Positions 20,373 to 34,333 of a stretch of DNA of 64,000 bases are shown here, piece by piece. The translations under genes and the position numbers were made by a program. The stretch spans positions 20,616 through 84,615 of the forward strand of contig DATKSM010000047.1 in assembly GCA_035531655.1 (NCBI GenBank), written 5' to 3'. Numbering within the stretch: the stretch's first letter is position 1; each line of letters begins with the position of its first letter. A model generated the notes under the pieces. The model made no database searches and was not told where the DNA came from. It saw only the letters and a list, made by a program, of their open reading frames with translations. This DNA comes from Solirubrobacteraceae bacterium. GTDB taxonomy: Bacteria; Actinomycetota; Thermoleophilia; Solirubrobacterales; Solirubrobacteraceae.

Positions 20373-20969
20373 TCACACCTGCTCCGTGCCCGCCGGCCCT
20401 CCCTCGTAGCGGCTCTCGGTGGCGGCCCGCTGGCCCTGGTAGTGACTGCCGAGGCCGGGACTTCCGTAGGGCTTCTGCGCCGGCTTGTCCAGCGTCATGA
20501 ACGACAGCTGGGCGATCGGCAGATCGGGGTAGAGCCGGATCGGGACACGCGTCAGGTTGTTGAGTTCGAGCGTCAGCGTGCCCTCGAAGCCCGGGTCGCA
20601 GAAGCCGGCGGTCGCGTGCACGATCAGCCCGAGTCGTCCGAGGCTCGACTTGCCCTCGATGCGCGCGACGATGTCATCGGGGATCTTCACCCACTCCAGC
20701 GTGCGACCGAGACAGAACTCGCCCGGGTGGATCACGAACGGCTCACCCGCCGGCACGACGACCTCCTCGGTCAGATTCGCCGGCGGGTCGCGCAGGTCGA
20801 TCGCAGTCGCGCGGTGGTTGTGGAACACGCGGAACGAATCACCGAGCCGCAGGTCGATGCTCGCCGGCTGCACCAGCTTCGGATCCCATGGGTCGATCCG
20901 GATCCGGCCCTCCTCGACCAAACGGAGAATGGTGCCGTCAGACAGGACTGAGGTGGGCGCAAGCGTCAT
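20373..20969 (-). CDS. dcd: dCTP deaminase
   Basis: QPASIDLRL, EGKSSLGRLGL, ATAGFCDPGFEG, YQGQ. Confidence 0.96.
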   Translation of the reverse strand: MTLAPTSVLSDGTILRLVEEGRIRIDPWDPKLVQPASIDLRLGDSFRVFHNHRATAIDLRDPPANLTEEVVVPAGEPFVIHPGEFCLGRTLEWVKIPDDIVARIEGKSSLGRLGLIVHATAGFCDPGFEGTLTLELNNLTRVPIRLYPDLPIAQLSFMTLDKPAQKPYGSPGLGSHYQGQRAATESRYEGGPAGTEQV

Positions 20970-20987: not shown

Positions 20988-23423
20988 TCAGTGACGCAGG
21001 CGCGTGCCCTCGGGGTCGTACAGCGGCTCGGCGGCGACCTCGCCCGCGACCCACTCGCCGAAGATGTCGAGCTCGACTGAGGAGCCGACGTCAACCTCGG
21101 GCGGCAGGTAGGCATAGGCGATCGAGCGCTCGACCGCGTAGCCGTAGCCGGCGCTGGTCACGCGGCCGACAACCTCGCCACCGACGCGCACCGGCTCGTT
21201 CCCGAGTGCCACGGAGCGTGGGTCGCCGAGCGTGATGCAGCGCAGGCGCCGGGCGACCGGCCGCTCGCGCAACGCGTCTGCGCCGTTGAAGTCCTTGTCG
21301 CCGGCCACGCAGAAGTCGAGGCCCGCCTCGAAGGGGCTGTCGTCCGCAGTGATGTCCGAGGACCAGGCGCGATAGCCCTTCTCGAGCCGCAGCGACTCGA
21401 TCGCGCGGTAGCCGCCGGCGATGAGGCCGAGCGGTTCGCCCGAATCCCAGAGCGTCCGCCAAAGGCCGAGGCCGTATTCGCTCGGGCAGTAGAGCTCCCA
21501 GCCGAACTCCCCGACGTAGGTCACGCGCAGCGCGCGCACGGGCACGTCGCCGACGGTCAGCTCGCGCATGCGCATGTAGCCGAAGTCGAGGGGATCGGGC
21601 GTAAGCGGCGCCAAGGTGTCCTTCGCGCGCGGGCCCCACAGGCCGAAGCAGGCCCAGCGCGAGGTCACGTCGCTCAGGCTGACCGAGCCGTCGTCCGGCA
21701 GATGGCGGCTGATCCAGGCCGCGTCGTGCTGGCCGAAGGCGGTGCCGGTGACGATCTGGAACAGCTCCGGTGCCACCCGCGCGACAGTGAAGTCGCACTC
21801 GATGCCGCCGTGGCGGTTCAGCATCTGGGTATAGGTGATCTGGCCGACATCGCGCGCGACGCGGTTGTCGCAGAGGCGCTCGAGCAGTTCGGCCGCCCCT
21901 GGTCCCGAAACCTCGAGCTTGCTGAAGGAGGACTCGTCGAACAGGCCGGCGCGCTCGCGTGTGCCAAGCGCCTCGGCACCGATCGCCGCCGACCAGTGCG
22001 TGCCCGCCCAGCCGCGCGGCCGCAGGTCCGGGTCGCCGTCGCCGGCGTTCGACTCATACCAGTTGACCCGCTCCCAGCCGGATTTCTCGCCGAAAGCGCC
22101 GCCGTGCTCGGCGTGCCATGCGTACGCGGGCGGGAGTCGCAGCGGCCGGCCCGCGAGCCGCTCGTGGCCGGGGTAGCGGATGTCGTAGTAGGTCTCGTAG
22201 ACCTCTGTGGTGCGTTTGAGCGTGTAGCTCGGCGAGCGGTACTGCGGCCCGAAGCGGCGGATGTCCATCTCCCAGACGTCGAGCCCCGGCTCGCCGGCGA
22301 GGATCCATTCGGCGATCAGCTTGCCCATGCCGCCGGCACCCGCCAGCCCGTGCGCGCAGAAGCCGGCGGCGACGAACAGGCCGTGCACATCGCTCTCACC
22401 CAGGCAGAACTCGTTGTCGGGGGTGAATGCCTCGGGTCCGTTGATCAGCCGCGTGACCTTCACGTCCTCCATCAGCGGCACACGCTTGCGGGAGTTCTCG
22501 GCGATCTCCTCGAAGCGCGGCCAATCCTCTTCGAGCAGGCGGCCGTTGAAGTCGGCCGGGATCCGGTCGACGAGGCTGCTATCGAGCGACCACGGCGCGC
22601 TTCCGCGCTCGTAACCGCCCATCACGAGACCGGCTCCCTCCTCGCGGAAGTAGATCAGCAGGTCGGGGTCGCGCAGCGTCGGCAGGTGCACGATCTCGCC
22701 GTCGGCGTTGCGCTCGCGCTCGCGGAACGGCTGCGTCACCAGGTACTCGTGCGCGAACGGCACGATTGGGACGCGAACTCCCGCCAGGCGACCGATCTCC
22801 GCCGCGTACATGCCGCCGGCGTTGACGACGACCTCGGCCTGCACCGGGCCCCACTCGGTCTGCACGCCGCGAACCCGGCCGTCGGCGACGTCGATCCCGG
22901 TCACGCGCGTATGCGTGAAGATCCGCACACCGCCCTCGCGCGCGCCCTCGGCCAGCGCGTAAGTCAGCTGGGAGGGGTCGAGGTAGCCGTCGGTCGCGAG
23001 GTATGACGCGCAGCGCACGCCGTCGCTCACCATCAGCGGGAACAGTTCGCGCGCCTCGTCGGCGTTGATCAGCTCGAGCGGCAGCCCGAAGGTGCGCGCC
23101 CACGCGACTTGCCTGAGCACCTCCTGTTCGCGCTCGGGCGTGCAGGCCAAACGGATTCCCCCGCACTCGACCCAGCCGCAGTCGAGCGTGCGGTAGAGCG
23201 CCACCGAGTCCATCATCATCCGTGTCAGCGACACGCTGCCGCGCAGTTGCCCGACGAGTCCGGCTGAGTGGAAGGTCGAGCCGCTGGTCAGCTCGTTGCG
23301 GTCGAGCAGGATCACATCGCGCTCGCCGAGCTGCGCGAGGTGGTACGCGATCGAGGTGCCGCCGACGCCGCCGCCGATGATCACGATCCTCGCGCGGTCC
23401 GGCACTTCACGGAGACGCGGCAT
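20988..23423 (-). CDS. GcvT-family FAD/THF-dependent oxidoreductase (dimethylglycine/sarcosine dehydrogenase-like)
   Basis: GGGVGG FAD motif, GSTFHSAG, NGPEAFTPD, GWER, YVGEFGWE, LRLEKGY. Confidence 0.93.
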   Translation of the reverse strand: MPRLREVPDRARIVIIGGGVGGTSIAYHLAQLGERDVILLDRNELTSGSTFHSAGLVGQLRGSVSLTRMMMDSVALYRTLDCGWVECGGIRLACTPEREQEVLRQVAWARTFGLPLELINADEARELFPLMVSDGVRCASYLATDGYLDPSQLTYALAEGAREGGVRIFTHTRVTGIDVADGRVRGVQTEWGPVQAEVVVNAGGMYAAEIGRLAGVRVPIVPFAHEYLVTQPFRERERNADGEIVHLPTLRDPDLLIYFREEGAGLVMGGYERGSAPWSLDSSLVDRIPADFNGRLLEEDWPRFEEIAENSRKRVPLMEDVKVTRLINGPEAFTPDNEFCLGESDVHGLFVAAGFCAHGLAGAGGMGKLIAEWILAGEPGLDVWEMDIRRFGPQYRSPSYTLKRTTEVYETYYDIRYPGHERLAGRPLRLPPAYAWHAEHGGAFGEKSGWERVNWYESNAGDGDPDLRPRGWAGTHWSAAIGAEALGTRERAGLFDESSFSKLEVSGPGAAELLERLCDNRVARDVGQITYTQMLNRHGGIECDFTVARVAPELFQIVTGTAFGQHDAAWISRHLPDDGSVSLSDVTSRWACFGLWGPRAKDTLAPLTPDPLDFGYMRMRELTVGDVPVRALRVTYVGEFGWELYCPSEYGLGLWRTLWDSGEPLGLIAGGYRAIESLRLEKGYRAWSSDITADDSPFEAGLDFCVAGDKDFNGADALRERPVARRLRCITLGDPRSVALGNEPVRVGGEVVGRVTSAGYGYAVERSIAYAYLPPEVDVGSSVELDIFGEWVAGEVAAEPLYDPEGTRLRH

Positions 23424-24300
23424 GCAACAGCTCCTCAATGTCTCGTGGATCCGCGGCGGCGCGCTCGAGCCGCTCGAAGTGCTCGTCCGCATACGCGGTG
23501 AAGTCAAAGTCGAGCTGAGAGATCAGTCCCTGGAGGACTCCCCAGGCACCCTCGCGGGCGTCGGAGACGAGCCGGAAAAGACGCAGGGCGGAGAGCCGGC
23601 AAAGCGCAGCCGGCTCTCCGAAATAAGCCTCCAGCAGGCGTCGCTCGGCGTGTTCGTCGAAATCGTTGCTGACCGCGAGGTTTCCGAGGTCGAAGTAGCG
23701 GTGGCCCAGCCCTGCGTACTCCCAGTCGACGAGCTGCACGTGTGAATCGGTCTGGATCAGATTGCCGGGCAAGAGGTCGTTGTGACATGGCACCGGCTCG
23801 GTCAGTGGCAGCACCGCGGCGATCCGGTCCACGAGCGCCTGCGCCTTCCCGTAGGCCGGAGGGAGCGCGACACCACGTTCGGCGACGGTCACAGCGTAGA
23901 GGCGCAGCAGGTCGGGGATCCAGAAGCGTGTCGGCAGCGCGAGGGCGCTGTCATGGAAGACCCTCAGGGCGCGTGCGACCTGACCCGGGTCGGCACGCAG
24001 GCGCGCGGGGTCGACAGTCGTGCCGGGCACGAACGCGGTGACCAGGCACTCGGCGTCGGCGTGGAGCAGCTGCGGTCCGATCCCCAGGTTCGCGGCCCGC
24101 TCGGCCGCGAGCCGCTCAGAGGCGCGGTCGATCCCGAGCAGCCCGGTGTCCTGGCCGGGCAACCGTAGGACGCAGTCGCGCCCGCCGAGGCGCAGGCGGT
24201 AGTTGCGGTTGGTGATGCCACCGCTCAGCGCCACCGGCAGACCGCCGGCGGGGCCCAGCTCCCCCTCGAGCCGTCGCACCAGCTCGCTCAGGTCGGACAA
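23407..24300 (-). CDS. Choline/ethanolamine kinase family phosphotransferase
   Basis: GGITNRNY, Brenner motif CHNDLLPGN, choline kinase motif VDWEYAG. Confidence 0.9.
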   Translation of the reverse strand: MSDLSELVRRLEGELGPAGGLPVALSGGITNRNYRLRLGGRDCVLRLPGQDTGLLGIDRASERLAAERAANLGIGPQLLHADAECLVTAFVPGTTVDPARLRADPGQVARALRVFHDSALALPTRFWIPDLLRLYAVTVAERGVALPPAYGKAQALVDRIAAVLPLTEPVPCHNDLLPGNLIQTDSHVQLVDWEYAGLGHRYFDLGNLAVSNDFDEHAERRLLEAYFGEPAALCRLSALRLFRLVSDAREGAWGVLQGLISQLDFDFTAYADEHFERLERAAADPRDIEELLHAASP

Positions 24301-24322
24301 GCCACGGCCCGGGTCTGGCGCT

Positions 24323-24346
24323 TAAGGCCCGGCTCATATACCTTCA
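24323..24346. promoter_or_regulatory. Candidate GntR/FadR operator 1
   Basis: TAAGG-cccggctcatata-CCTTCA (AAGG-N13-CCTT) between divergent kinase and glnA4-like genes; same pattern at 26588. Confidence 0.55.
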
Positions 24347-24399
24347 TGTGCGCAATCACACAGAGGTGTGGAGCGTTCGTCAAGGGGAAGGTGGCCGTC

Positions 24400-25728
24400 G
24401 TGGAGCTCGAAGCTCTCAGAGCGGGTGTAGACGCGGGTGAAATCGAGACCGTGGTCCTGGCGCTGACCGACATGCAGGGACGCCTCCAGGGCAAGCGTCT
24501 GACCGCCCGGTACTTCCTGGACGAGGTGCTGGGCCACGGCGCCGAAGGCTGCAACTACCTGCTCGCGGTCGACGTCGAGATGAACACCGTGGACGGCTAT
24601 GCGATGTCCTCCTGGGAGAAGGGCTACGGCGACTTCGTGATGCGGCCCGACCTGGCGACGCTGCGGATGATGCCGTGGGAGACGGCGACGGCGATGTGCC
24701 TGGCCGACCTGGCCTGGGCGGACGGCGGCGACGTGGTCGCATCGCCGCGCCAGATCCTGCGGAAGCAACTCGCGCGGCTCGCGGAGCGCGGCTGGACGGC
24801 CAACGCGTCGACCGAGCTCGAATTCCTCGTCTTCCGCAACAGCTACGAGCAGGCGTCGAAGCAGGGGTACCGCGAACTCGATCCCGCGAACGCCTACAAC
24901 GTCGACTATTCGTTGCTCGGGACCGCGCGCGTCGAGCCGTTGATCCGGCGGCTTCGCAACTCGATGACGGCGGCCGAACTGGAGGTCGAGAACTCCAAGG
25001 GCGAGTGCAACTTCGGCCAGCACGAGATCAATTTTCGCTACTCGGACGCGCTGCGCTGCGCCGACAGCCACACGATCTACAAGAACGGCGCCAAGGAGAT
25101 CGCCGCCCAGGAGGGCATGGCGATCAGCTTCATGGCCAAGTTCAACGAGCGCGAGGGCAACTCGTGCCACATTCACTTCTCACTCGCCGACACCGAGGGG
25201 CCGCTGTTTCACCGCGACCAGCTCATGTTCGACGCGTTCCTGGCTGGTCAGCTCGAGTATGCGCGCGAGCTGACCCTGCTGCTGGCGCCGAACATCAACT
25301 CCTACAAGCGCTTCGCGGTCGGTTCGTTCGCGCCGACGACGGTGGCCTGGGGCCACGACAACCGTACGTGCGCGTTCCGGGTCGTAGGCCACGGCGGCGC
25401 ACTGCGCTTCGAGAACCGCTCCGGCGGTGCCGACCTCAACCCATACCTGGCGCTGTCAGCGCTGATCGCGGCCGGCCTGGAGGGCGTCGAGCGCCGCCTC
25501 GAGCTCGAGCCGGCGTTCGAGGGCAACGCCTACGAGGCCACCGATAAGCCGCGGCTGCCGTCGACGCTGCGAGACGCGCGCGACCTGTTCGCGACCAGCA
25601 CCGTCGCGCGGGCGGCCTTCGGCGGAGAGGTGGTGGCCCACTACCTCAACGCGGCTGACGTCGAGCTTGCGGCCTTCGACGCCGCCGTGACCGACTGGGA
25701 ACGCGTCCGCGGCTTCGAGCGGCTATGA
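24400..25728 (+). CDS. glnA4: Glutamine synthetase-like gamma-glutamyl-amine ligase (GlnA4 type)
   Basis: DMQGRLQGKR, GCNYLLAVD, SSWEKGYGDF, KGECNFGQHE, GNSCHIHFSL, DNRT; neighbours match the actinobacterial glnA4 cluster. Confidence 0.85.
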   Translation: MELEALRAGVDAGEIETVVLALTDMQGRLQGKRLTARYFLDEVLGHGAEGCNYLLAVDVEMNTVDGYAMSSWEKGYGDFVMRPDLATLRMMPWETATAMCLADLAWADGGDVVASPRQILRKQLARLAERGWTANASTELEFLVFRNSYEQASKQGYRELDPANAYNVDYSLLGTARVEPLIRRLRNSMTAAELEVENSKGECNFGQHEINFRYSDALRCADSHTIYKNGAKEIAAQEGMAISFMAKFNEREGNSCHIHFSLADTEGPLFHRDQLMFDAFLAGQLEYARELTLLLAPNINSYKRFAVGSFAPTTVAWGHDNRTCAFRVVGHGGALRFENRSGGADLNPYLALSALIAAGLEGVERRLELEPAFEGNAYEATDKPRLPSTLRDARDLFATSTVARAAFGGEVVAHYLNAADVELAAFDAAVTDWERVRGFERL

Positions 25729-25738
25729 GCCCGCGGCG

Positions 25739-26524
25739 ATGAGCGTTTCGAGCGACGGCGGCCGGACGCTCGCAGCGGGTGGCGGCACGCTCGCAGCGGG
25801 TGGCGGCACGCTCGAAGCGGCGACGCTCGAGACGATCTTTGCTCCCGTGCGGTCGCAGACCGCGTTCGAGGAGGCGGTGGACCGGATCGGGACCGCGATC
25901 CGGCTGGGACTGCTGCCGCCGGGCACACGCCTGCCGGCTGAGCGGGAGCTGTGCGCAAAGCTGGGGATCGCGCGCTCGACGCTGCGTCAGGCGCTGGTCG
26001 CGCTCGGACAGAGCGGCCACCTGCGCGCGATCCGGGGACGGGGCGGCGGCACGTTCGTCGTCGACGACCTGCCGCCGGCAGCGCCGCCGCCCGACGACGT
26101 GCTCGACCGCTGGCGGGCGATGTGGGACCACAGGATCGCGCTCGAGGTCGGCGTGGCCGTGCTGGCGTGCAGGCGCGCGCGGCCGGGAGCCTTGCGTGGG
26201 CTCGCGGAACTGCTGACCGCGATGGAGGTATCCCTGCACGACTTCACCACCTACCGGCAGCTCGACGTGCGCTTCCACATCGGGCTCGCAGAGACGACCG
26301 AGAACCCGAGGCTGATCACGGTCGCGACCGAGGTGCAGGGCAACGCGACCCGGCTGATCGCGCTGATTGCGCACCCAGCGGAGGTGTTGAGCTCTTCCAA
26401 TGTGCAGCACCGGCGGATCCTCGCAGCGGTCTCGAGCGGCGATGAGGGTGCAACCGCACGAGAGGTCGCCGAGCACCTGCGCGGGACCGAGCACATCCTC
26501 GCCGGCCTGCTCCCACGGGGCTGA
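25739..26524 (+). CDS. GntR/FadR family transcriptional regulator
   Basis: RLPAERELC..LGIARSTLRQAL..GRGGGTFV wHTH; FCD domain DVRFH. Confidence 0.92.
   Translation: MSVSSDGGRTLAAGGGTLAAGGGTLEAATLETIFAPVRSQTAFEEAVDRIGTAIRLGLLPPGTRLPAERELCAKLGIARSTLRQALVALGQSGHLRAIRGRGGGTFVVDDLPPAAPPPDDVLDRWRAMWDHRIALEVGVAVLACRRARPGALRGLAELLTAMEVSLHDFTTYRQLDVRFHIGLAETTENPRLITVATEVQGNATRLIALIAHPAEVLSSSNVQHRRILAAVSSGDEGATAREVAEHLRGTEHILAGLLPRG
25766..25820 (+). repeat. 21-bp tandem repeat (about 2.6 copies, TLAAGGG)
   Basis: acgctcgcagcgggtggcggc twice plus a partial third copy. Confidence 0.9.
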
Positions 26525-26549
26525 CGGCGGCGACTTTGCCCGCGGACCC

Positions 26550-26611
26550 TTGACTTGGCCCGGTCGCTTGCGTCAGGATCGCCAACCTAAGGGCCGACTA
26601 TCAAGCCTTTA
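26550..26611 (+). promoter_or_regulatory. Promoter TTGACT-N18-CAGGAT followed by candidate operator 2
   Basis: -35 at 26550, -10 at 26574; TAAGG-gccgactatcaag-CCTTTA at 26588-26611. Confidence 0.55.
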
Positions 26612-26654
26612 GCGCGCAGCGGGACCAATCAATGAACCATACAGGGGGAGCAGC

Positions 26655-28247
26655 ATGGTGACCGAGACGTTGTCGGCGGACGAACAACGACTGGCTGAGC
26701 TTGGGTATAAGCAGGAGCTGAAGCGCGGCTGGAGTTCGTTCTCCAACTTCGCGATTTCGTTCTCGATCATCTCGGTGCTGTCCGGCTGCTTCACCACATA
26801 CGGCCAAGCCTTCAACAACGGCGGCCCAGTAGCCATCTCGATCGGCTGGCCGGTGATCAGTGTGCTGATCATGTGCGTCGCGTTCTCGATGTCGGAGCTC
26901 GCGTCCGCGATGCCCACCGCCGGCGGGATCTACTACTGGGCATCGAAGCTCGGCGGAGCGGGGTGGGGCTGGTTCACGGGCTGGTTCAACCTGATCGGCC
27001 TCCTCGCGGTCGTGGCCTCCGTCGACTACGGCGCCGCGAACTTCCTCTCGGCGCTGCTGGGCGATTTCAAAGTCAACTTCATCATTAACTTCACCTCGTC
27101 CAACACCCACTACTACGACCATACGGTCTTCGCGCTGTTCCTCTTGATCCTGATCCTCCACGGACTGATCAACGTGTTCTCAAGCCACCTTGTGTCGCTC
27201 TTCAACGGCGTTTCCGTGTGGTGGCACGTCGCGGGCGTCGCCGTCATCGTGATCGTGCTAATCGTCGTGCCGAGCCATCACGAGAGCATCGGCTGGGTGT
27301 TCGGCCATCGCATCAACAACAGCGGCTTCGGCAGCCACATGTACTGGTACTACATCCTGCCCGTTGGCTTCCTGTTGACCATGTACACAATCACCGGGTA
27401 TGACGCTTCCGCGCACGTCTCGGAGGAGACGCACGGTGCGGCGGATTCTGCCCCCAAGGGCATCTGGCGCTCGGTGTTCTACTCGGCGGTAGTTGGCTAC
27501 ATCCTGCTGCTCGCGCTCACCTTCGCCGTCCAGAAGTCCGCGCTGAAGGGCCAGGCACTGACGACCTACGCAATCCCGCTGCTGTCTGCGCTCGGATCGT
27601 TCTCGTCCAAGTCGATCCTCTTCATTTCGACCATCGGACAGCTCTTCTGCGGCATGGCGTGTGTGACCAGCGCATCGCGCATGACATTTGCATTCTCACG
27701 CGACGGCGCCATTCCCGGCCACCGGCTGTGGCGTCAGCTCGGCCAGAACAGGACTCCTACGTATGCGGTCCTATTCGTCGTGTTGATGGCCGCGATTGTC
27801 ACCGTTCCGGCGTACTTCCCGAACAGCAGTGGCATCACGGTTGCATTCACGGCGGTGGTGTCGATCTCGGTGATCGGTCTCTACATCGCCTACGCAATCC
27901 CGGTCTACCTGCGCTGGCGGATGGGCGACGCGTTTCAGCCGGGTCCGTGGACGCTCGGCAAGAAGTACAAGTGGGTGAACCTGATCGCCGTAGTCTGGGT
28001 GGCGCTCTGCGTGATCATCTTCTGCCTGCCAGTCGTCCCGAGCGGCGTGTTCTTCAAGCACGGCTTCAGCTGGAACACAGCCAACTATGCGCCGCTGGTG
28101 ACGATCGGCGTGATGCTCGTGGTGACGATCTGGTATCTCATCTCGGCGCGCAAGACGTTCAAGGGTCCTGTCAGGACGATCGACGACGCCGCATTCCACG
28201 AACTGGATGGGCTGGAGCCGATTGCTCCAGGACCATCGTCCCCATGA
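26655..28247 (+). CDS. APC-family amino acid/amine permease
   Basis: LGYKQELKR, ELASAMPTAGGIYYW, GYDASAHVSEET, AFSRDG; about 12 TM; RBS GGGGGAG. Confidence 0.93.
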   Translation: MVTETLSADEQRLAELGYKQELKRGWSSFSNFAISFSIISVLSGCFTTYGQAFNNGGPVAISIGWPVISVLIMCVAFSMSELASAMPTAGGIYYWASKLGGAGWGWFTGWFNLIGLLAVVASVDYGAANFLSALLGDFKVNFIINFTSSNTHYYDHTVFALFLLILILHGLINVFSSHLVSLFNGVSVWWHVAGVAVIVIVLIVVPSHHESIGWVFGHRINNSGFGSHMYWYYILPVGFLLTMYTITGYDASAHVSEETHGAADSAPKGIWRSVFYSAVVGYILLLALTFAVQKSALKGQALTTYAIPLLSALGSFSSKSILFISTIGQLFCGMACVTSASRMTFAFSRDGAIPGHRLWRQLGQNRTPTYAVLFVVLMAAIVTVPAYFPNSSGITVAFTAVVSISVIGLYIAYAIPVYLRWRMGDAFQPGPWTLGKKYKWVNLIAVVWVALCVIIFCLPVVPSGVFFKHGFSWNTANYAPLVTIGVMLVVTIWYLISARKTFKGPVRTIDDAAFHELDGLEPIAPGPSSP

Positions 28248-28286
28248 TTGCGGCCCACTGATGCGGCCTCGGTAAGAAAGGCCCAC

Positions 28287-29651
28287 ATGACGGAAGTGCT
28301 GACGGTCCTCGAGCCGGCTACGGAAGCCGTGCTCGAGGAGGTCCCGTGTGCAGGGATCGACGAGGTCGACGAGGCCGTGGGGAGAGCCCGTGCTGCGCTC
28401 GGTGCGTGGCGCGGGCTCGCGCCCGGCGCGCGAGCGGCGCAGCTGCGCGCGCTCGCCGACAAGGTCGAGGAGCACCTCGACGAGCTGACGCTGCTGGAGG
28501 CGCGCAACGCCGGCAAGCCAATTGCCTCCGCCCGCGGCGAGATGGGGATGGTGGTTGACACCTTCCGCTACTACGCGGGCGCGCCGGAGCGACCGATGGG
28601 CGACACGATCCCGGTCGCCGGCGGGCAGGCGTTCACTGTCCGCGAGCCACTCGGTGTGGTCGGCCTGATCGTTCCCTGGAACTTTCCGCTGACGATCGCC
28701 GCCTGGAAGCTCGGGCCGGCGCTCGCGGCCGGCAACACGGTGGTGCTCAAGCCGGCCGATCTGACGCCGCTGACGGCACTGCGCTTCGAACAGCTTGCGC
28801 TTGAGGCGGGGATCGCCCCGGGCGTTGTGAACGTCACCGCCGGCCACGGGATCGTGGCGGGCGCCCGGCTCGTGGAGCACCCGGATGTCGCCAAGATCGC
28901 GTTCACCGGCTCGACAGAGGTTGGGCGCTCGATCGCGGCCACGGCTGCGGCGACGCTGAAGCGCGTGACACTCGAGCTCGGCGGCAAGTCCGCGAACATC
29001 GTCTTCGCCGACGCCGATCTCGAGAAGGCGGCCGCGGCCGCGCCGTGGGCCGTGTTCGACAATGCCGGCCAGGACTGCTGCGCGCGCTCACGGCTGCTGG
29101 TGCAAGCTTCGGTGATGGACCGCTTCCTTTCGCTGATGCAGCCGCACGTCGAGGGTTTCAAGGTCGGCGATCCACTCGACCCGGACTCCGACATGGGGCC
29201 GCTGATCTCGGCCAAGCAGCGTGACCACGTGGCCTCGTTCGTTGACGCGGACGCTGAAGTTGCGTACCGCGGCAGTGCGCCCGAGGGGCCCGGCTTCTGG
29301 TTCCCGCCGACGGTGCTCGCGCCGGCGGATCCGAACAGTCGTGCCGTACGGGAGGAGATCTTCGGGCCGGTCGTGGCGGTGATCCCGTTCCGCGACGAGG
29401 GCGAGGCGGTGCGGATCGCCAACGACACGATCTACGGTCTTTCTGGTTCCATCTGGACCCTGGACGGCGCGCGCGCGCTGCGCGTCGCGCGCGCCGTGGA
29501 CAGCGGTGTGCTCTCGATCAACTCGAACTCGTCGGTGCGTGTGAGCACCCCGTTCGGCGGCTTCAAGCAATCCGGCTACGGCCGCGAACTCGGCCCCCAC
29601 GCAACCGACGCATACACGGAGACCAAGACCATCTACTACGCAACCACATGA
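28287..29651 (+). CDS. Aldehyde dehydrogenase
   Basis: IVPWNFP, FTGSTEVG, LELGGKS, NAGQDC, EEIFGP, PFGGFKQSG. Confidence 0.95.
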   Translation: MTEVLTVLEPATEAVLEEVPCAGIDEVDEAVGRARAALGAWRGLAPGARAAQLRALADKVEEHLDELTLLEARNAGKPIASARGEMGMVVDTFRYYAGAPERPMGDTIPVAGGQAFTVREPLGVVGLIVPWNFPLTIAAWKLGPALAAGNTVVLKPADLTPLTALRFEQLALEAGIAPGVVNVTAGHGIVAGARLVEHPDVAKIAFTGSTEVGRSIAATAAATLKRVTLELGGKSANIVFADADLEKAAAAAPWAVFDNAGQDCCARSRLLVQASVMDRFLSLMQPHVEGFKVGDPLDPDSDMGPLISAKQRDHVASFVDADAEVAYRGSAPEGPGFWFPPTVLAPADPNSRAVREEIFGPVVAVIPFRDEGEAVRIANDTIYGLSGSIWTLDGARALRVARAVDSGVLSINSNSSVRVSTPFGGFKQSGYGRELGPHATDAYTETKTIYYATT

Positions 29652-30391
29652 ATCGCTTACAAGACAAAGTCGCAGTGATCACCGGCGCCGCCGGTGGGAT
29701 CGGCCTGGCCACCGCCGAGCTGTTCTCGGCAGAGGGCGCCCGTGTCGTGGGTGTCGATCTGCGTGAGCACGAGGTCGGCGAGCTCTCGCTCCAGGGCGAC
29801 CTCACCGACGAAGCGGCCGTGATCGAGCTGTACCGGACCGTGCGCGAGAAGTTCGGGACGATCGACGTGCTTTTCAATAACGCCGGCATCTCACCGACCG
29901 ACGATGACTCCGTGCTGAAGACCGAGCTGGAGGTCTGGCAGCGCGTGCAGGACGCGAACCTCAAGAGCGTGTTCCTCTGCTGCAAGTACGGGATCCCGCA
30001 CTTGCTCGAAACCGGCGGTGGCTCGGTCATCAACACCGCCTCCTTCGTCGCGGTGATGGGCGCCGCCACCTCGCAGATCTCTTACACGGCCTCCAAGGGG
30101 GGTGTGCTGGCGATGTCTCGCGAGCTCGGCGTCGAGTTCGCCAAGAGCGGCGTGCGCGTCAACGCACTCTGCCCCGGACCGGTGAGCACACCGCTGTTGA
30201 TCGAGCTTTTCGCCAAGGATCCCGAACGTGCGGCGCGGCGACTCGTGCACGTGCCGATGGGACGCTTCGGCGAAGCCCACGAGATAGCCAAGGCGGTGCT
30301 ATTCCTCGCCAGTGACGACTCGTCGTTCATGACGGCGTCCTCGCTGCTGGTCGACGGCGGGATCAACGGGGCGTACACGACCCCGCTGTAG
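29648..30391 (+). CDS. Short-chain dehydrogenase/reductase
   Basis: TGAAGGIG, NNAG, YTASK, PG motifs. Confidence 0.93.
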   Translation: MNRLQDKVAVITGAAGGIGLATAELFSAEGARVVGVDLREHEVGELSLQGDLTDEAAVIELYRTVREKFGTIDVLFNNAGISPTDDDSVLKTELEVWQRVQDANLKSVFLCCKYGIPHLLETGGGSVINTASFVAVMGAATSQISYTASKGGVLAMSRELGVEFAKSGVRVNALCPGPVSTPLLIELFAKDPERAARRLVHVPMGRFGEAHEIAKAVLFLASDDSSFMTASSLLVDGGINGAYTTPL

Positions 30392-30497: not shown

Positions 30498-32189
30498 ATG
30501 ACTGCCGTAAGCCGCTCGCGGACCCGATCGCTCAACCTCTCGCTCTTCCGGGGCGGGCGCTTCTACGTGTGGCTGACGCTGCTCGCACTCGCGCTGAGCG
30601 CGCTCTCGCTGCTGTTTCCCTCGACCCCCAGCTATGACCCCTATTCGTGGCTGATCTGGGGGCGGGAGATCTTCCACGGACAGCTGCACATCGCGGGCGG
30701 CTCGAGTTGGAAGCCGCTGCCGGTGATCTTCACGACGGTGTTTGCGCTGTTCGGTTCCGCACAGCCGAACCTGTGGCTGGTCGTCGCGCGGGCGGGTGCC
30801 GTGGTGACGGCGCTGATGTCCGTCAGGCTCACCGTGCGGATCACGTGGAGCCTGGTCTCGCAGAGCAGAGTCGGCGCGCTGCGCCGAGGTGAATCGTGGC
30901 TGGGCCGAACGGTGGCCGTCGCGCCCGCGGTACTGGCCGGCGCAGCCGTCCTGATCTGCACGACCTTCACCAGGGGTTACCCGGTCAACATGATGCTCGG
31001 CTACTCGGAGGGCGTGATGACGGCAGCCTTCCTGATCGCCGTCGAACGCGCCTGGGACGGCCACCATCGCCAGGCGTTCGCGCTCGGCATCATTCCCTGT
31101 CTCGACCGACCGGAGGTCTGGCTCTTGTGGGGCCTCTACGGCCTCTGGCTGATGCGGCGGGAGCGCGGCGCCCGACTGCTGGTGATCGGACTCGGGATCC
31201 TGATGCTGGCGCTCTGGGTCGTGCCGCAGGAGCTCGGCGGCGGCCACGGCGGCATCCTCGGGCTGGCGACGCACGCCCAGCACAACCGCTCCCGCAAGAG
31301 CGCCGCAAACACGTCCTTCCCGTTCTGGAACGAGCTCGCCTACACGCTCTGGCCGCTTATAGTGGAGCGGCTCGAGTTCGCCTCGCTGCTACTGACCGGC
31401 TATACCGCGTATCTGCTGGTGCGCGCGCGGCGCCGGCTGGGAAGCTGGCGCGGCGCCGTGGAGCACTATCCGGCGGCGGTCGCAGCCGCCCTGGCGGGGA
31501 TGTTCGGCTTCGTCTGGTGGCTCGGTATCGCGGTCGAGACCGAGGCAGGGTTTGCCGGCAACCCGCGCTACGCCGTGATCGGCGTGATGCTCGTCGGCGT
31601 CAGTGGCTGCGCCGCCTACGGCTGGGCCTGCGTGGGTCTCGCCACGCTCGTCGCCAGGGTCTGGGGACGCATACGGCGGCGTTCGGGCAACGGTCGGGCG
31701 ACGGTCTCGAACAGGTCGATGACCTGGCTGGCGGCGGCGGCCACGCTCGTGCTGCTCGTCGTGTTCGCGCTGGTGCCGGACCGCTTCACGAACCGGATGC
31801 CGACGATCAGTTCGATCCGCTATGCGCTGCGCTACCAGGCGCGCCTGCGCGAGGAGTTCGCCGCGCTGATCCGGCACGCGGGCGGCACCCAGAAGGTGAT
31901 GGGCTGTGGCAGCATGATGGCCAACAACTACCAGGTGACGATGCTCGCTTGGGACCTTGATGTTCCGATCTATTTCGTCCAGGCGCTGCCGCGGAAGTTC
32001 TCGACTGCTCAAGGCCCGAACGTCGTCTTCCAGGATGCAACGAGCACGGGTGCGAAGCCGTTTCCGTCGGATCTTCAGATGCAGACATGGGAACAGGCCT
32101 GGAAGCACAAGAACGGCTCGCAGTACAAGGTCGTCAAGACCGATCCGGTCACGCTCTATATGGACTGCTCCTTGTACAGCAAGACATGA
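30498..32189 (+). CDS. Polytopic membrane protein, GT-C-fold glycosyltransferase-like
   Basis: Many TM segments; acidic first loop PSYDPYSW, YSE, RPE and PRY motifs. Confidence 0.65.
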   Translation: MTAVSRSRTRSLNLSLFRGGRFYVWLTLLALALSALSLLFPSTPSYDPYSWLIWGREIFHGQLHIAGGSSWKPLPVIFTTVFALFGSAQPNLWLVVARAGAVVTALMSVRLTVRITWSLVSQSRVGALRRGESWLGRTVAVAPAVLAGAAVLICTTFTRGYPVNMMLGYSEGVMTAAFLIAVERAWDGHHRQAFALGIIPCLDRPEVWLLWGLYGLWLMRRERGARLLVIGLGILMLALWVVPQELGGGHGGILGLATHAQHNRSRKSAANTSFPFWNELAYTLWPLIVERLEFASLLLTGYTAYLLVRARRRLGSWRGAVEHYPAAVAAALAGMFGFVWWLGIAVETEAGFAGNPRYAVIGVMLVGVSGCAAYGWACVGLATLVARVWGRIRRRSGNGRATVSNRSMTWLAAAATLVLLVVFALVPDRFTNRMPTISSIRYALRYQARLREEFAALIRHAGGTQKVMGCGSMMANNYQVTMLAWDLDVPIYFVQALPRKFSTAQGPNVVFQDATSTGAKPFPSDLQMQTWEQAWKHKNGSQYKVVKTDPVTLYMDCSLYSKT

Positions 32190-32713: not shown

Positions 32714-34333
32714 ATGGCCGCGACAACCACCAGCGACAAGCTCACAGTCCCTGAGACGAAGGATTCGGGCTTCATCCCCGACTACGAGTTCCCGCTGCCC
32801 GGCTTCATCAGGCAGCTGCCAGCGTGGTCCCGAGTCGCGCTGATCATCTTCATCCTGGTCGTCGCCTCGCTCGTCCTCCGTACGCGGTCGGTCGGCCAGC
32901 AGTACTGGATGGACGAGGCGATCACCGTCGGGATCTCATCCCACCACCTCTCGGCGATCCCGGGAATCATGCGCCAGGACGGGTCGCCGCCGCTTTTCTA
33001 CCTGCTGCTGCATTTTTGGATGCTGATGGTCGGCAATGGCGAGGCCGCGACACACTGGCTGTCTGAGATCTTCGCCGTACTGACGATTCCGATCGGCTAC
33101 TGGGGCGGCCTAAAACTCGCCGGCAAGCGCGCGGGCCTGATCACCGCGGCGCTGATGGCCTCCAGCGCGTTCCTCGACTACTACAGCCAGGAAACACGCA
33201 TGTACGCGCTGATGTCGCTGCTCGGCCTGTTCGGCACGATCGGCTTCGTCCGCGGCTTCGTGTTCCGCGAGCGGCGCTACGTGATCCTCTTCTCGCTTGC
33301 CGAGGCGGCAATGCTGTACACGCACAACTGGGCGCTCTTCTTCGGTGCCGGGTCGGTGCTGTCGCTGGTCGTGCTCTACCGCATCAGCGGCGACGAGATC
33401 CGCCTGAACCTGATTCGCGACGCAATCTACGCCTACGTCGGCGCCGCGATCCTGTTCGTACCGTGGCTTCCGAATTTCATCTTCCAGTCGCTGCACACGG
33501 CGGCCCCCTGGAACACGTCGCCGCGGTTCGGTGCGCCAGTTCAGATCGCCCAGAGTGTGTACGGGGGCGCAACGGTCGCCGCGATCCTGGTCATCGGCGC
33601 AGCTGTGGGCTATACGGGCTTCTTCAGGAAGGCGGAGCGCGCCAGCGCCGAGGCCAAGATCGCCCTGATCCTGTTCACACTCGTCCTCTTCACGCTCCTG
33701 CTCGGCTGGATCGCGTCGCAGATCACGCCGGCCTGGAACCCGCGGTACTTCGCACCGATCGTCCCGGCGATCATCATGTTCACCGCGATTGGGATGTCAC
33801 GGGCGGGTGTGGTCGGCCCGCTCACCTTGGCGGTCGCGCTGATCTTCCTGGCGCGCGCCGATACCTACGCACCTCAACACAAGAGCGACATGCAGGACAT
33901 CGGTGGCGAGATGGGCCCGCTGATGCACAAGGGGGATCTTGTGATCGTCGGCCAGCCCGAACAGACGCCGCTGGCCTACTACTACTTACCCGGTGGACTC
34001 CGATTCTCCAGCACGATCGGGCCGGTGAGGGATCCGACCTTTGTGAACTGGATCAACGCTCTGTCGCGCTACCGTGCCGCGAATCCCGCCAAGGTCCTGC
34101 CGCCGATGCTGAACAAGGTGAAGCCTGGCCAGCAGGTGCTGTACATCCGGCCGCTCACAGAGGGCGTGATCGGGTGGAAGGCGCCGTGGACCTCCGAGAT
34201 CCGGACCCGCTCAGCTCAGTGGGGCAAGATCCTCTCCGACGACAAGCAACTCACCGTCGAGGCGTGGGCGCCCCACAATTACCGTGGCGCCTGCTGCGTC
34301 GCGGACTCCGCCATTCTCTACGTCAAGAAGTAG
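32714..34333 (+). CDS. GT-C glycosyltransferase (GT39/PMT-like)
   Basis: YWMDEA, DGSPPLFYLLLH, YSQETRMYAL, PRYF; RBS AGGA. Confidence 0.88.
   Translation: MAATTTSDKLTVPETKDSGFIPDYEFPLPGFIRQLPAWSRVALIIFILVVASLVLRTRSVGQQYWMDEAITVGISSHHLSAIPGIMRQDGSPPLFYLLLHFWMLMVGNGEAATHWLSEIFAVLTIPIGYWGGLKLAGKRAGLITAALMASSAFLDYYSQETRMYALMSLLGLFGTIGFVRGFVFRERRYVILFSLAEAAMLYTHNWALFFGAGSVLSLVVLYRISGDEIRLNLIRDAIYAYVGAAILFVPWLPNFIFQSLHTAAPWNTSPRFGAPVQIAQSVYGGATVAAILVIGAAVGYTGFFRKAERASAEAKIALILFTLVLFTLLLGWIASQITPAWNPRYFAPIVPAIIMFTAIGMSRAGVVGPLTLAVALIFLARADTYAPQHKSDMQDIGGEMGPLMHKGDLVIVGQPEQTPLAYYYLPGGLRFSSTIGPVRDPTFVNWINALSRYRAANPAKVLPPMLNKVKPGQQVLYIRPLTEGVIGWKAPWTSEIRTRSAQWGKILSDDKQLTVEAWAPHNYRGACCVADSAILYVKK

Follow-up and report, generated by a model that had tools for sequence, protein, structure and literature searches.

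Why should genes for the gamma-glutamylation of ethanolamine stand back to back with genes for a choline kinase-like protein and a putative folate-dependent demethylase? The question is raised by a locus on contig DATKSM010000047.1 (GenBank assembly GCA_035531655.1) of a Solirubrobacteraceae bacterium, a high-GC metagenome-assembled genome of 2.16 Mb and 76% completeness; the window, as used hereafter, is the whole 64,000-nucleotide stretch of this contig which we analyzed (positions 20,616 to 84,615). On its plus strand, the locus encodes a glutamine synthetase-like (GS-like) ligase of the GlnA4 type, a GntR-family regulator, an APC permease, an aldehyde dehydrogenase (ALDH) and a short-chain dehydrogenase (SDR). 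Divergent from these lie the overlapping genes of a small-molecule kinase and of a flavoenzyme related to dimethylglycine dehydrogenase (DMGDH), with an FAD and a tetrahydrofolate (THF)-binding domain. A previous reading of this DNA, made from the sequence only, had described this set, and all seven genes were found at the positions it gave. Judging from their context, we regard the chances as about even that all these genes form a single unit for the catabolism of amino alcohols of the ethanolamine type, in which the kinase-demethylase pair would serve as a front end for N-methylated ethanolamines.

The arrangement is far from a chance one, recurring in most of 80 loci and in metagenome contigs. 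Our comparison covered 18 regions from relatives, 80 species-representative loci found by a kinase profile, 41 related genomes and a set of metagenome contigs. In 64 of the 80 loci, no more than 400 nt separate a DMGDH-like gene from that of the kinase, most exceptions being truncated contigs; a GS gene is present within 10 kb in 49 of the 80. Among the 41 genomes, kinase and flavoenzyme orthologues co-occur in the same 14 besides the source genome (G000), with fragments of both in G024; the remaining 25 comprise 20 with neither gene and 5 with only distant paralogues (both in G005; the flavoenzyme alone in G002, G009, G010 and G020).

Lack of synteny between the pair and glnA4-like genes in relatives had been named by the sequence-only reading as evidence that would speak against a joint pathway. 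The neighborhood survey instead found synteny of the pair with the GS genes far outside the genus, namely in Solirubrobacterales, Thermoleophilaceae, Gaiellaceae, Rubrobacteraceae and unplaced metagenome contigs, and in several gene orders, some of them interleaved. Thermoleophilaceae show the order SDR-ALDH-C26-GS-APC (C26 being a peptidase C26 gene), with kinase-flavoenzyme in divergent orientation and GntR lying past the pair; in a Gaiellaceae locus (L122), ALDH and C26-GS flank the pair; another locus (L119) reads C26-kinase-flavoenzyme on one strand; and two metagenome contigs (L176, L177) carry kinase-flavoenzyme-GntR-GS-ALDH-SDR, all co-directional. In four Chloroflexota/Dormibacterota loci (L108, L110, L124, L125), kinase, flavoenzyme and APC permease genes stand beside a putrescine-type operon of a PotD-like ABC transporter, an aminobutyraldehyde dehydrogenase and a gamma-aminobutyrate (GABA) transaminase. 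These four have no GS-like gene, and the fate of the demethylated product must therefore differ there. In these phyla, a class-III aminotransferase is encoded beside the kinase; it was considered as an ethanolamine-phosphate phospho-lyase and rejected: it scores above the cut-off as GABA transaminase and, accompanied by the aminobutyraldehyde dehydrogenase and the PotD-type ABC transporter, therefore belongs to the neighboring putrescine operon. A literature search found no publication on the kinase/demethylase pair or on N-methylethanolamine catabolism, which is no proof that none exists.

The ligase scores well below the NCBIfam cut-offs for the GlnA equivalog (191 versus 429 bits), type III glutamine synthetase (230 versus 470) and PuuA (192 versus 650) and, judged by these, is not a true glutamine synthetase. 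Its nearest solved structures are 5dm3 and 11zs, both matched almost end to end at about 415 bits, and its neighbors, GntR, permease, ALDH and SDR, match a GlnA4-type cluster as described in the Fig. 2 legend of PMC6529630. The hydrolase expected in such a cluster had been reported as absent, which is true of the window, where no peptidase C26 or FGase gene was found, but not of the genome: a search for a PuuD-like peptidase C26 returned one full-length gene (G000:C7:17391-18044; PF07722, 196.6-196.7 bits, profile positions 1-219). Its product is 53-60% identical to most in-cluster copies of relatives and 34-47% identical to the most distant ones, and 24 related species (24 of the 49 GS-bearing loci) carry the orthologous gene inside the cluster, between ALDH and GS. 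This distribution indicates that the clade of the window relocated its hydrolase gene and did not lose the hydrolysis step; the pathway is thus no hydrolase-less variant. No PF05013 (formylglutamate-amidohydrolase-type) hydrolase was found in the genome, and no canonical ethanolamine ammonia-lyase EutB in the five genomes searched.

The surroundings of the relocated gene add a possible metabolic context. On contig C7 (L127:8623-11409), a glycerophosphodiester phosphodiesterase gene (PF03009, 87 bits) lies upstream of the C26 gene and overlaps its start, and a threonine/serine dehydratase gene (threonine ammonia-lyase; TIGR01127, 399 bits versus a cut-off of 379) is convergent with it. The C26-dehydratase pairing recurs in four relatives (G004, G018, G021, G023), the phosphodiesterase only in G004. 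A dehydratase gene also closes the row after the SDR gene in L074, as it does, judged by tblastn positions, in L066, L068, L071, L078 and L105; at least nine loci have it in divergent orientation to the kinase gene, and it adjoins the permease gene in L148, L152 and L178, in L148 and L178 together with the C26 gene. Its recurrence fits a route in which glycine and methylene-THF yield serine, with a serine hydroxymethyltransferase step assumed, and serine yields pyruvate. Some loci include glycerol-kinase-like and glycerol-3-phosphate-oxidase-like genes which, together with the phosphodiesterase next to C26, point to phospholipid head-groups as a likely natural source of the substrate.

As for the flavoenzyme, its 811 residues show the DAO, FAO_M, GCV_T and GCV_T_C architecture of its family (about 810-870 aa), at 223, 65, 253 and 70 bits, respectively, and its PDB matches are to 1pj5 (513 bits) and to rat DMGDH (4pab, 501 bits). 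An alignment to 1pj5 shows that the equivalents of the flavinylated His48, the His225/Tyr259 dyad and the folate-site Asp552 of the bacterial dimethylglycine oxidase DMGO are all kept; a further alignment was made to 3gsi, whose own sequence differs at Asp552. The flavinylation motif reads HSAG, as in dehydrogenases, and not HAPG, placing Ala where the oxidase has a Pro linked to oxygen reactivity (PMC5082570). Likewise, the FAD domain resembles the mammalian dehydrogenase more (250 bits) than it does the bacterial oxidase (169 bits). Together, the dehydrogenase-like FAD domain and the Ala for Pro replacement make an N-demethylase linked to electron transfer flavoprotein (ETF) and dependent on THF the most likely identity of this protein. 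A second DMGDH-like orthogroup, 35-38% identical to it, resides in a conserved operon with genes for ETF-beta, ETF-alpha and an Fe-S/CCG-domain oxidoreductase in six relatives (L133-L138, from G007, G016, G008, G019, G015 and G012). This paralogue, which occurs both with and without the kinase pair, suits the oxidation of sarcosine or dimethylglycine better and is probably the usual dehydrogenase for these compounds, with an electron path of its own.

The source genome also holds a methylated-amine island on contig C115 (L126:1257-15804), with genes for a trimethylamine N-oxide demethylase (NF053776, 1156 bits versus a cut-off of 1100), SoxA-like and SoxB-like subunits, a type-III-GS-like (GmaS-like) ligase and a LysR regulator. 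Folate-linked C1-amine metabolism thus exists in this organism as a separate system.

The kinase matches PF01633 (72.9 bits; cut-off 29) and PF01636 (75.5 bits) and, below the cut-off, a GntI-like NCBIfam model (191 bits); among solved structures, it matches 3dxq at 123 bits and the choline kinase LicA (4r77) at 56.7 bits. The Brenner motif is conserved (H173-D175-N180), as is D192-x-E194-Y195. The alignment to LicA is weak at this score, its register being supported by the alignment to 3dxq; it indicates that the aromatic choline pocket of LicA is preserved in three of its four residues (equivalents of Y197, W254 and Y268), while LicA Trp251 is replaced by Glu250 and the rim residue Glu213 by Ser. 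Both Glu250 and the preceding Arg are conserved in all aligned sequences except the most divergent one. By this comparison, the pocket would not form a full quaternary-ammonium cage, and its carboxylate should suit a proton-bearing amine better than a quaternary ammonium. It is, moreover, established that a quaternary amine cannot be oxidized by a flavin amine dehydrogenase. For both these reasons choline itself is an unlikely substrate, a correction to the sequence-only reading, which had included choline derivatives.

A sister type of kinase retains a W-x-x-W motif where the type found here has R-E-x-x-W. It is represented by the second kinase of tandem loci in relatives (L038, L040, L064), which have the order flavoenzyme2-kinase2-kinase1-flavoenzyme1, and by the kinases of L175-L179. 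It is tempting to speculate that the two types reflect different methylation states of the substrate. An ESM Atlas search with the kinase returned generic names only; a search for the choline kinase-like bacterial family to which it belongs found 6263 representative clusters at 50% identity (E ≤ 0.001).

Protein fusions, whose gene context was taken from a scan of metagenome contigs, offer clues to the order of steps. EutH-kinase fusions form two separate clusters, an APC-kinase fusion has two full-length members, and a Rubrobacteraceae locus reads kinase-EutH-DMGDH (EutH at 630 bits versus a cut-off of 575); with its kin fused to transporters of these two kinds, the kinase would therefore act on an imported compound. 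A cluster of 20 HAD phosphatase-kinase fusions, at least 10 of them full-length (522 aa), is spread over several contigs, and in three metagenome contigs (L139-L141) the fusion gene lies directly 5′ of a DMGDH-like gene. Two Gemmatimonadota loci have a HisN-like phosphatase gene directly 5′ of the kinase-DMGDH pair. The encoded protein, such as that of L118:9151-9996, is closest to histidinol-phosphatase, whose substrate is an amino-alcohol phosphate. There is also a single DMGDH-kinase fusion (P0124, a singleton). Because of the transporter-kinase and phosphatase-kinase fusions and the position of the HisN-like gene, we favor the order import, phosphorylation, demethylation of the phospho-base, dephosphorylation, gamma-glutamylation. 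The proposal of the sequence-only reading that phosphorylation and demethylation precede glutamylation thus gains support from the fusions.

A shared palindrome, TAAGG-N13-CCTTYA, suggests that these genes may also be regulated together. It has four matches in the window at no more than one mismatch, where 0.52 would be expected. The core AAGG-N13-CCTT, again with up to one mismatch, occurs within 260 nt 5′ of the kinase gene in 45 of the 80 loci, against a rate of 0.2 per kb across the loci, and it is present there even at loci without an adjacent GS operon. The copy upstream of the permease gene is found at the same place in L046, L054, L055, L057 and L058, and Thermoleophilaceae have a related form, AGGT-N13-ACCT. 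This pattern fits one regulator acting on all three promoters (kinase, GS and permease), most simply the local GntR/FCD protein, for which the palindrome is probably the operator. The position of the gntR gene equals that of etuRI in the Streptomyces cluster (PMC6529630).

Building on the gene content, catalytic motifs, conserved linkage, fusions and common palindrome observed here, one can sketch how such a unit might work. The GS-like ligase would convert ethanolamine to gamma-glutamyl-ethanolamide, which SDR and ALDH would oxidize to gamma-glutamyl-glycine, and the C26 hydrolase, encoded elsewhere in the genome, would release glycine and glutamate; glycine and methylene-THF could then give serine, and the dehydratase would turn serine into pyruvate. 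The translationally coupled kinase and DMGDH-like enzyme would be the front end that admits monomethyl- and perhaps dimethyl-ethanolamine. Here, the kinase would phosphorylate the imported base, the flavoenzyme would oxidize an N-methyl group of the phospho-base and pass its carbon to THF, and a phosphatase would free ethanolamine for glutamylation; the phosphate may serve as an anionic handle, in the role that the carboxylate has in dimethylglycine. Both divergent operons and the permease operon would be controlled by the local GntR/FCD regulator via the common palindrome. In its most specific form, which we put forward tentatively and as something short of an even chance, this scheme amounts to an undescribed phospho-base demethylation route, a catabolic mirror image of the phosphoethanolamine N-methyltransferase pathway. 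After their phosphorylation, N-methyl- and N,N-dimethyl-ethanolamine would be demethylated by a new phospho-ester-specific, THF-dependent flavin dehydrogenase and returned to ethanolamine by dedicated phosphatases, with two kinase subtypes (Glu-x-x-Trp and Trp-x-x-Trp pockets) and two flavoenzyme paralogues for different methylation states.

Several observations weigh against this scheme, and some of them favor other explanations. No phosphatase gene is present in the window or in most Solirubrobacterales loci, and phosphorylation followed by dephosphorylation costs ATP beyond that for glutamylation. Several of the fusions are singletons and may be artefacts of assembly or gene calling, the genomes behind the palindrome counts are related, which makes the counts non-independent, and all functional claims, from the substrates and the order of steps to the pairing of regulator and operator, draw on context. 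If, instead, the free bases were demethylated, from dimethyl- via monomethyl-ethanolamine to ethanolamine, the lack of a phosphatase gene in most loci would fit, and the chemistry would be the simplest one for the GS-like ligase, which requires a free primary amine and spares the hydroxyl for the SDR; the kinase would then trap imported ethanolamine as phosphoethanolamine for a phospho-lyase or for envelope or lipid synthesis. However, this leaves unexplained the tight translational coupling and strict co-occurrence of kinase and flavoenzyme, the phosphatase-kinase fusion directly 5′ of the flavoenzyme gene and the paired kinase2-DMGDH2 paralogues. No candidate for an ethanolamine-phosphate phospho-lyase was found either, given that the Chloroflexota aminotransferase is a GABA transaminase, and we consider demethylation of the free bases rather unlikely. 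The flavoenzyme itself retains every residue known to matter in the dimethylglycine enzymes and scores 500-513 bits against DMGO and DMGDH, and no residues that would discriminate phosphate from carboxylate could be identified in it; moreover, it is the only large GcvT-domain demethylase in G021 and G023 and could there simply be a sarcosine/dimethylglycine dehydrogenase. One might thus suspect an ordinary enzyme of this kind throughout, clustered with the gamma-glutamyl genes since both routes end in glycine, and a kinase engaged in unrelated salvage. The serine dehydratase would be no obstacle, being part of classical glycine-betaine catabolic regulons as well, such as the Pseudomonas GbdR regulon. 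Yet many genomes carry the separate, better-fitting ETF-linked paralogue alongside the kinase-linked enzyme, the latter never occurs without the kinase in the sampled genomes, and transporters, phosphatases and the flavoenzyme occur as fusion partners of the kinase, all of which renders an ordinary dehydrogenase quite unlikely in our view.

Two further alternatives appear weaker still. The flavoenzyme might oxidize phosphoethanolamine, or the N-methylated compound, at the ethyl side, giving phosphoglycolaldehyde plus ammonia or methylamine, with a phosphatase and the ALDH to finish. The HAD hydrolases fused to the kinase would suit such a reaction, which has a DAO-family precedent in the conversion of N-methyl-2-aminoethylphosphonate to phosphonoacetaldehyde (PMC10590968). 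But the full GcvT module with its folate-site Asp argues for one-carbon capture, and a one-carbon unit is not a product of the ethyl-side reaction; the precedent enzymes, PbfC and PbfD, are without a GcvT domain. Ethyl-side oxidation is therefore improbable. That two independent modules have become neighbors by chance is what one might conclude from the 31 of 80 kinase-pair loci which have no GS gene within 10 kb; still, the linkage survives several rearrangements across classes and phyla, including single co-directional operons and C26-kinase-DMGDH operons, and the same palindrome precedes kinase and permease genes, making mere coincidence highly improbable.

The coordinates of the locus are based on a GC3-guided reading of open reading frames and profile searches against Pfam and NCBIfam.

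Features of the locus, in window coordinates
Feature	Position	Strand	Remarks
DMGDH-like flavoprotein (FAD domain + folate-binding GcvT domain)	20988-23423	-	811 aa from ATG 23423
Choline/ethanolamine-kinase-family small-molecule kinase	23407-24300	-	297 aa
Palindrome TAAGG-N13-CCTTCA, candidate operator	24323-24346	.	divergent kinase/GS intergenic region
GS-like gamma-glutamyl-amine ligase, GlnA4-type	24346-25728	+	PF00120 302 bits; start probably GTG 24400
GntR-family regulator with FCD effector domain	25739-26524	+	PF00392 51 bits, PF07729 70 bits
Second palindrome copy, TAAGG-N13-CCTTTA	26588-26611	.	5′ of permease gene
APC-superfamily permease (amino acid/choline transporter type)	26655-28247	+	PF13520 178 bits; best NCBIfam TIGR00907 304 bits, below cut-off
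Aldehyde dehydrogenase (ALDH)	28248-29651	+	PF00171 540 bits
Short-chain dehydrogenase (SDR)	29648-30391	+	PF13561 202 bits; NF004713 411 bits versus cut-off 404

The DMGDH-like gene likely starts at the tabulated ATG, which is preceded by a GAGGAG Shine-Dalgarno sequence and gives a 17-nt overlap with the kinase gene, whose stop is at 23407; the longest reading frame, from TTG 23507, would overlap that gene by 101 nt. About 100 nt separate the kinase start from the beginning of the GS operon. The APC, ALDH and SDR genes are contiguous or overlapping, with the SDR gene overlapping the ALDH stop by 4 nt; the best NCBIfam match of the ALDH is aminobutyraldehyde-dehydrogenase-like (462 bits, under the cut-off).

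Genes 3′ of the flavoenzyme gene (dcd, citrate synthase, cupin) are of the housekeeping kind and lie outside the unit. The dCTP deaminase gene (window 20373-20969) starts 18 nt after the flavoenzyme stop, leaving no space for a terminator, and co-transcription is possible; the corresponding spacing in relatives ranges from about 20 nt to about 3 kb, and the adjacency is probably incidental. On the far side, the SDR gene is followed by genes for two large polytopic membrane proteins (window 30498-32189 and 32714-34333) which have no Pfam or NCBIfam match and show genus-level synteny.

Membrane lipids in soil are a bulk source of ethanolamine, its N-methyl derivatives and choline, and the relevance of the locus lies in the use of these compounds by Actinomycetota (Thermoleophilia, Rubrobacteria), Chloroflexota and Gemmatimonadota of the soil that are abundant but poorly cultured. 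If our scheme is true, it would add a new enzyme activity to the dimethylglycine-dehydrogenase family, provide a widespread bacterial family of choline kinase-like proteins with its first physiological role, and show phosphate and the gamma-glutamyl group acting one after the other as two chemical handles within one pathway.

How, then, does the unit compare with known systems? The logic of its gamma-glutamyl part is that of the Escherichia coli Puu pathway (PuuA, PuuB/C, PuuD), in which putrescine is gamma-glutamylated, oxidized at the far end and released by a C26 peptidase; the substrate and the oxidation enzymes differ. The closest known counterpart is the SCO1610-SCO1615 cluster of Streptomyces coelicolor, which comprises the gamma-glutamylethanolamide synthetase GlnA4, a GntR regulator, an ALDH, an SDR and a glutamine-amidotransferase-like hydrolase, is joined by an amino-acid-type permease in other Streptomyces, and has been predicted to take ethanolamine via gamma-glutamyl-ethanolamide and gamma-glutamyl-glycine to glycine (PMC6529630). 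The window shares the GS-like ligase, GntR, permease, ALDH and SDR with this cluster, whereas the kinase and the GcvT flavoenzyme are absent from the Streptomyces description, and the hydrolase gene is unlinked here, next to the glycerophosphodiesterase and threonine/serine dehydratase genes. A glutamylation route for ethanolamine was first predicted in silico in Chromohalobacter salexigens (cited in PMC6529630). One of the two nearest solved structures of our ligase, 5dm3, is a GS-like protein of this organism, a member of a different phylum. We know of no kinase-demethylase pair reported there, and its transporter is of another type.

With LicA of Streptococcus pneumoniae and the uncharacterized kinase 3dxq, the window kinase has the fold family and the catalytic motifs in common, differing from LicA in the conserved Glu for Trp251 and the Ser for Glu213. 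Similarly, the flavoenzyme shares the four-domain architecture, the FAD-binding His, the His/Tyr dyad and the folate Asp with DMGO of Arthrobacter globiformis (1pj5) and mammalian DMGDH (4pab, 5l46); unlike these, it is always paired with a kinase, and its orthogroup is separate from the ETF-linked paralogue in the same genus. In aminoethylphosphonate catabolism, the DAO-family FAD oxidoreductases PbfC and PbfD extend an amine pathway to N-methyl-2-aminoethylphosphonate; in contrast to what we propose, they cut the ethyl-side C-N bond and release methylamine, and they have neither a folate domain nor a partner kinase (PMC10590968). Compared with the known GlnA4 route, then, the unit is probably new in joining a kinase-demethylase module to the gamma-glutamyl ethanolamine genes, thereby offering a candidate route for N-methylated ethanolamines.

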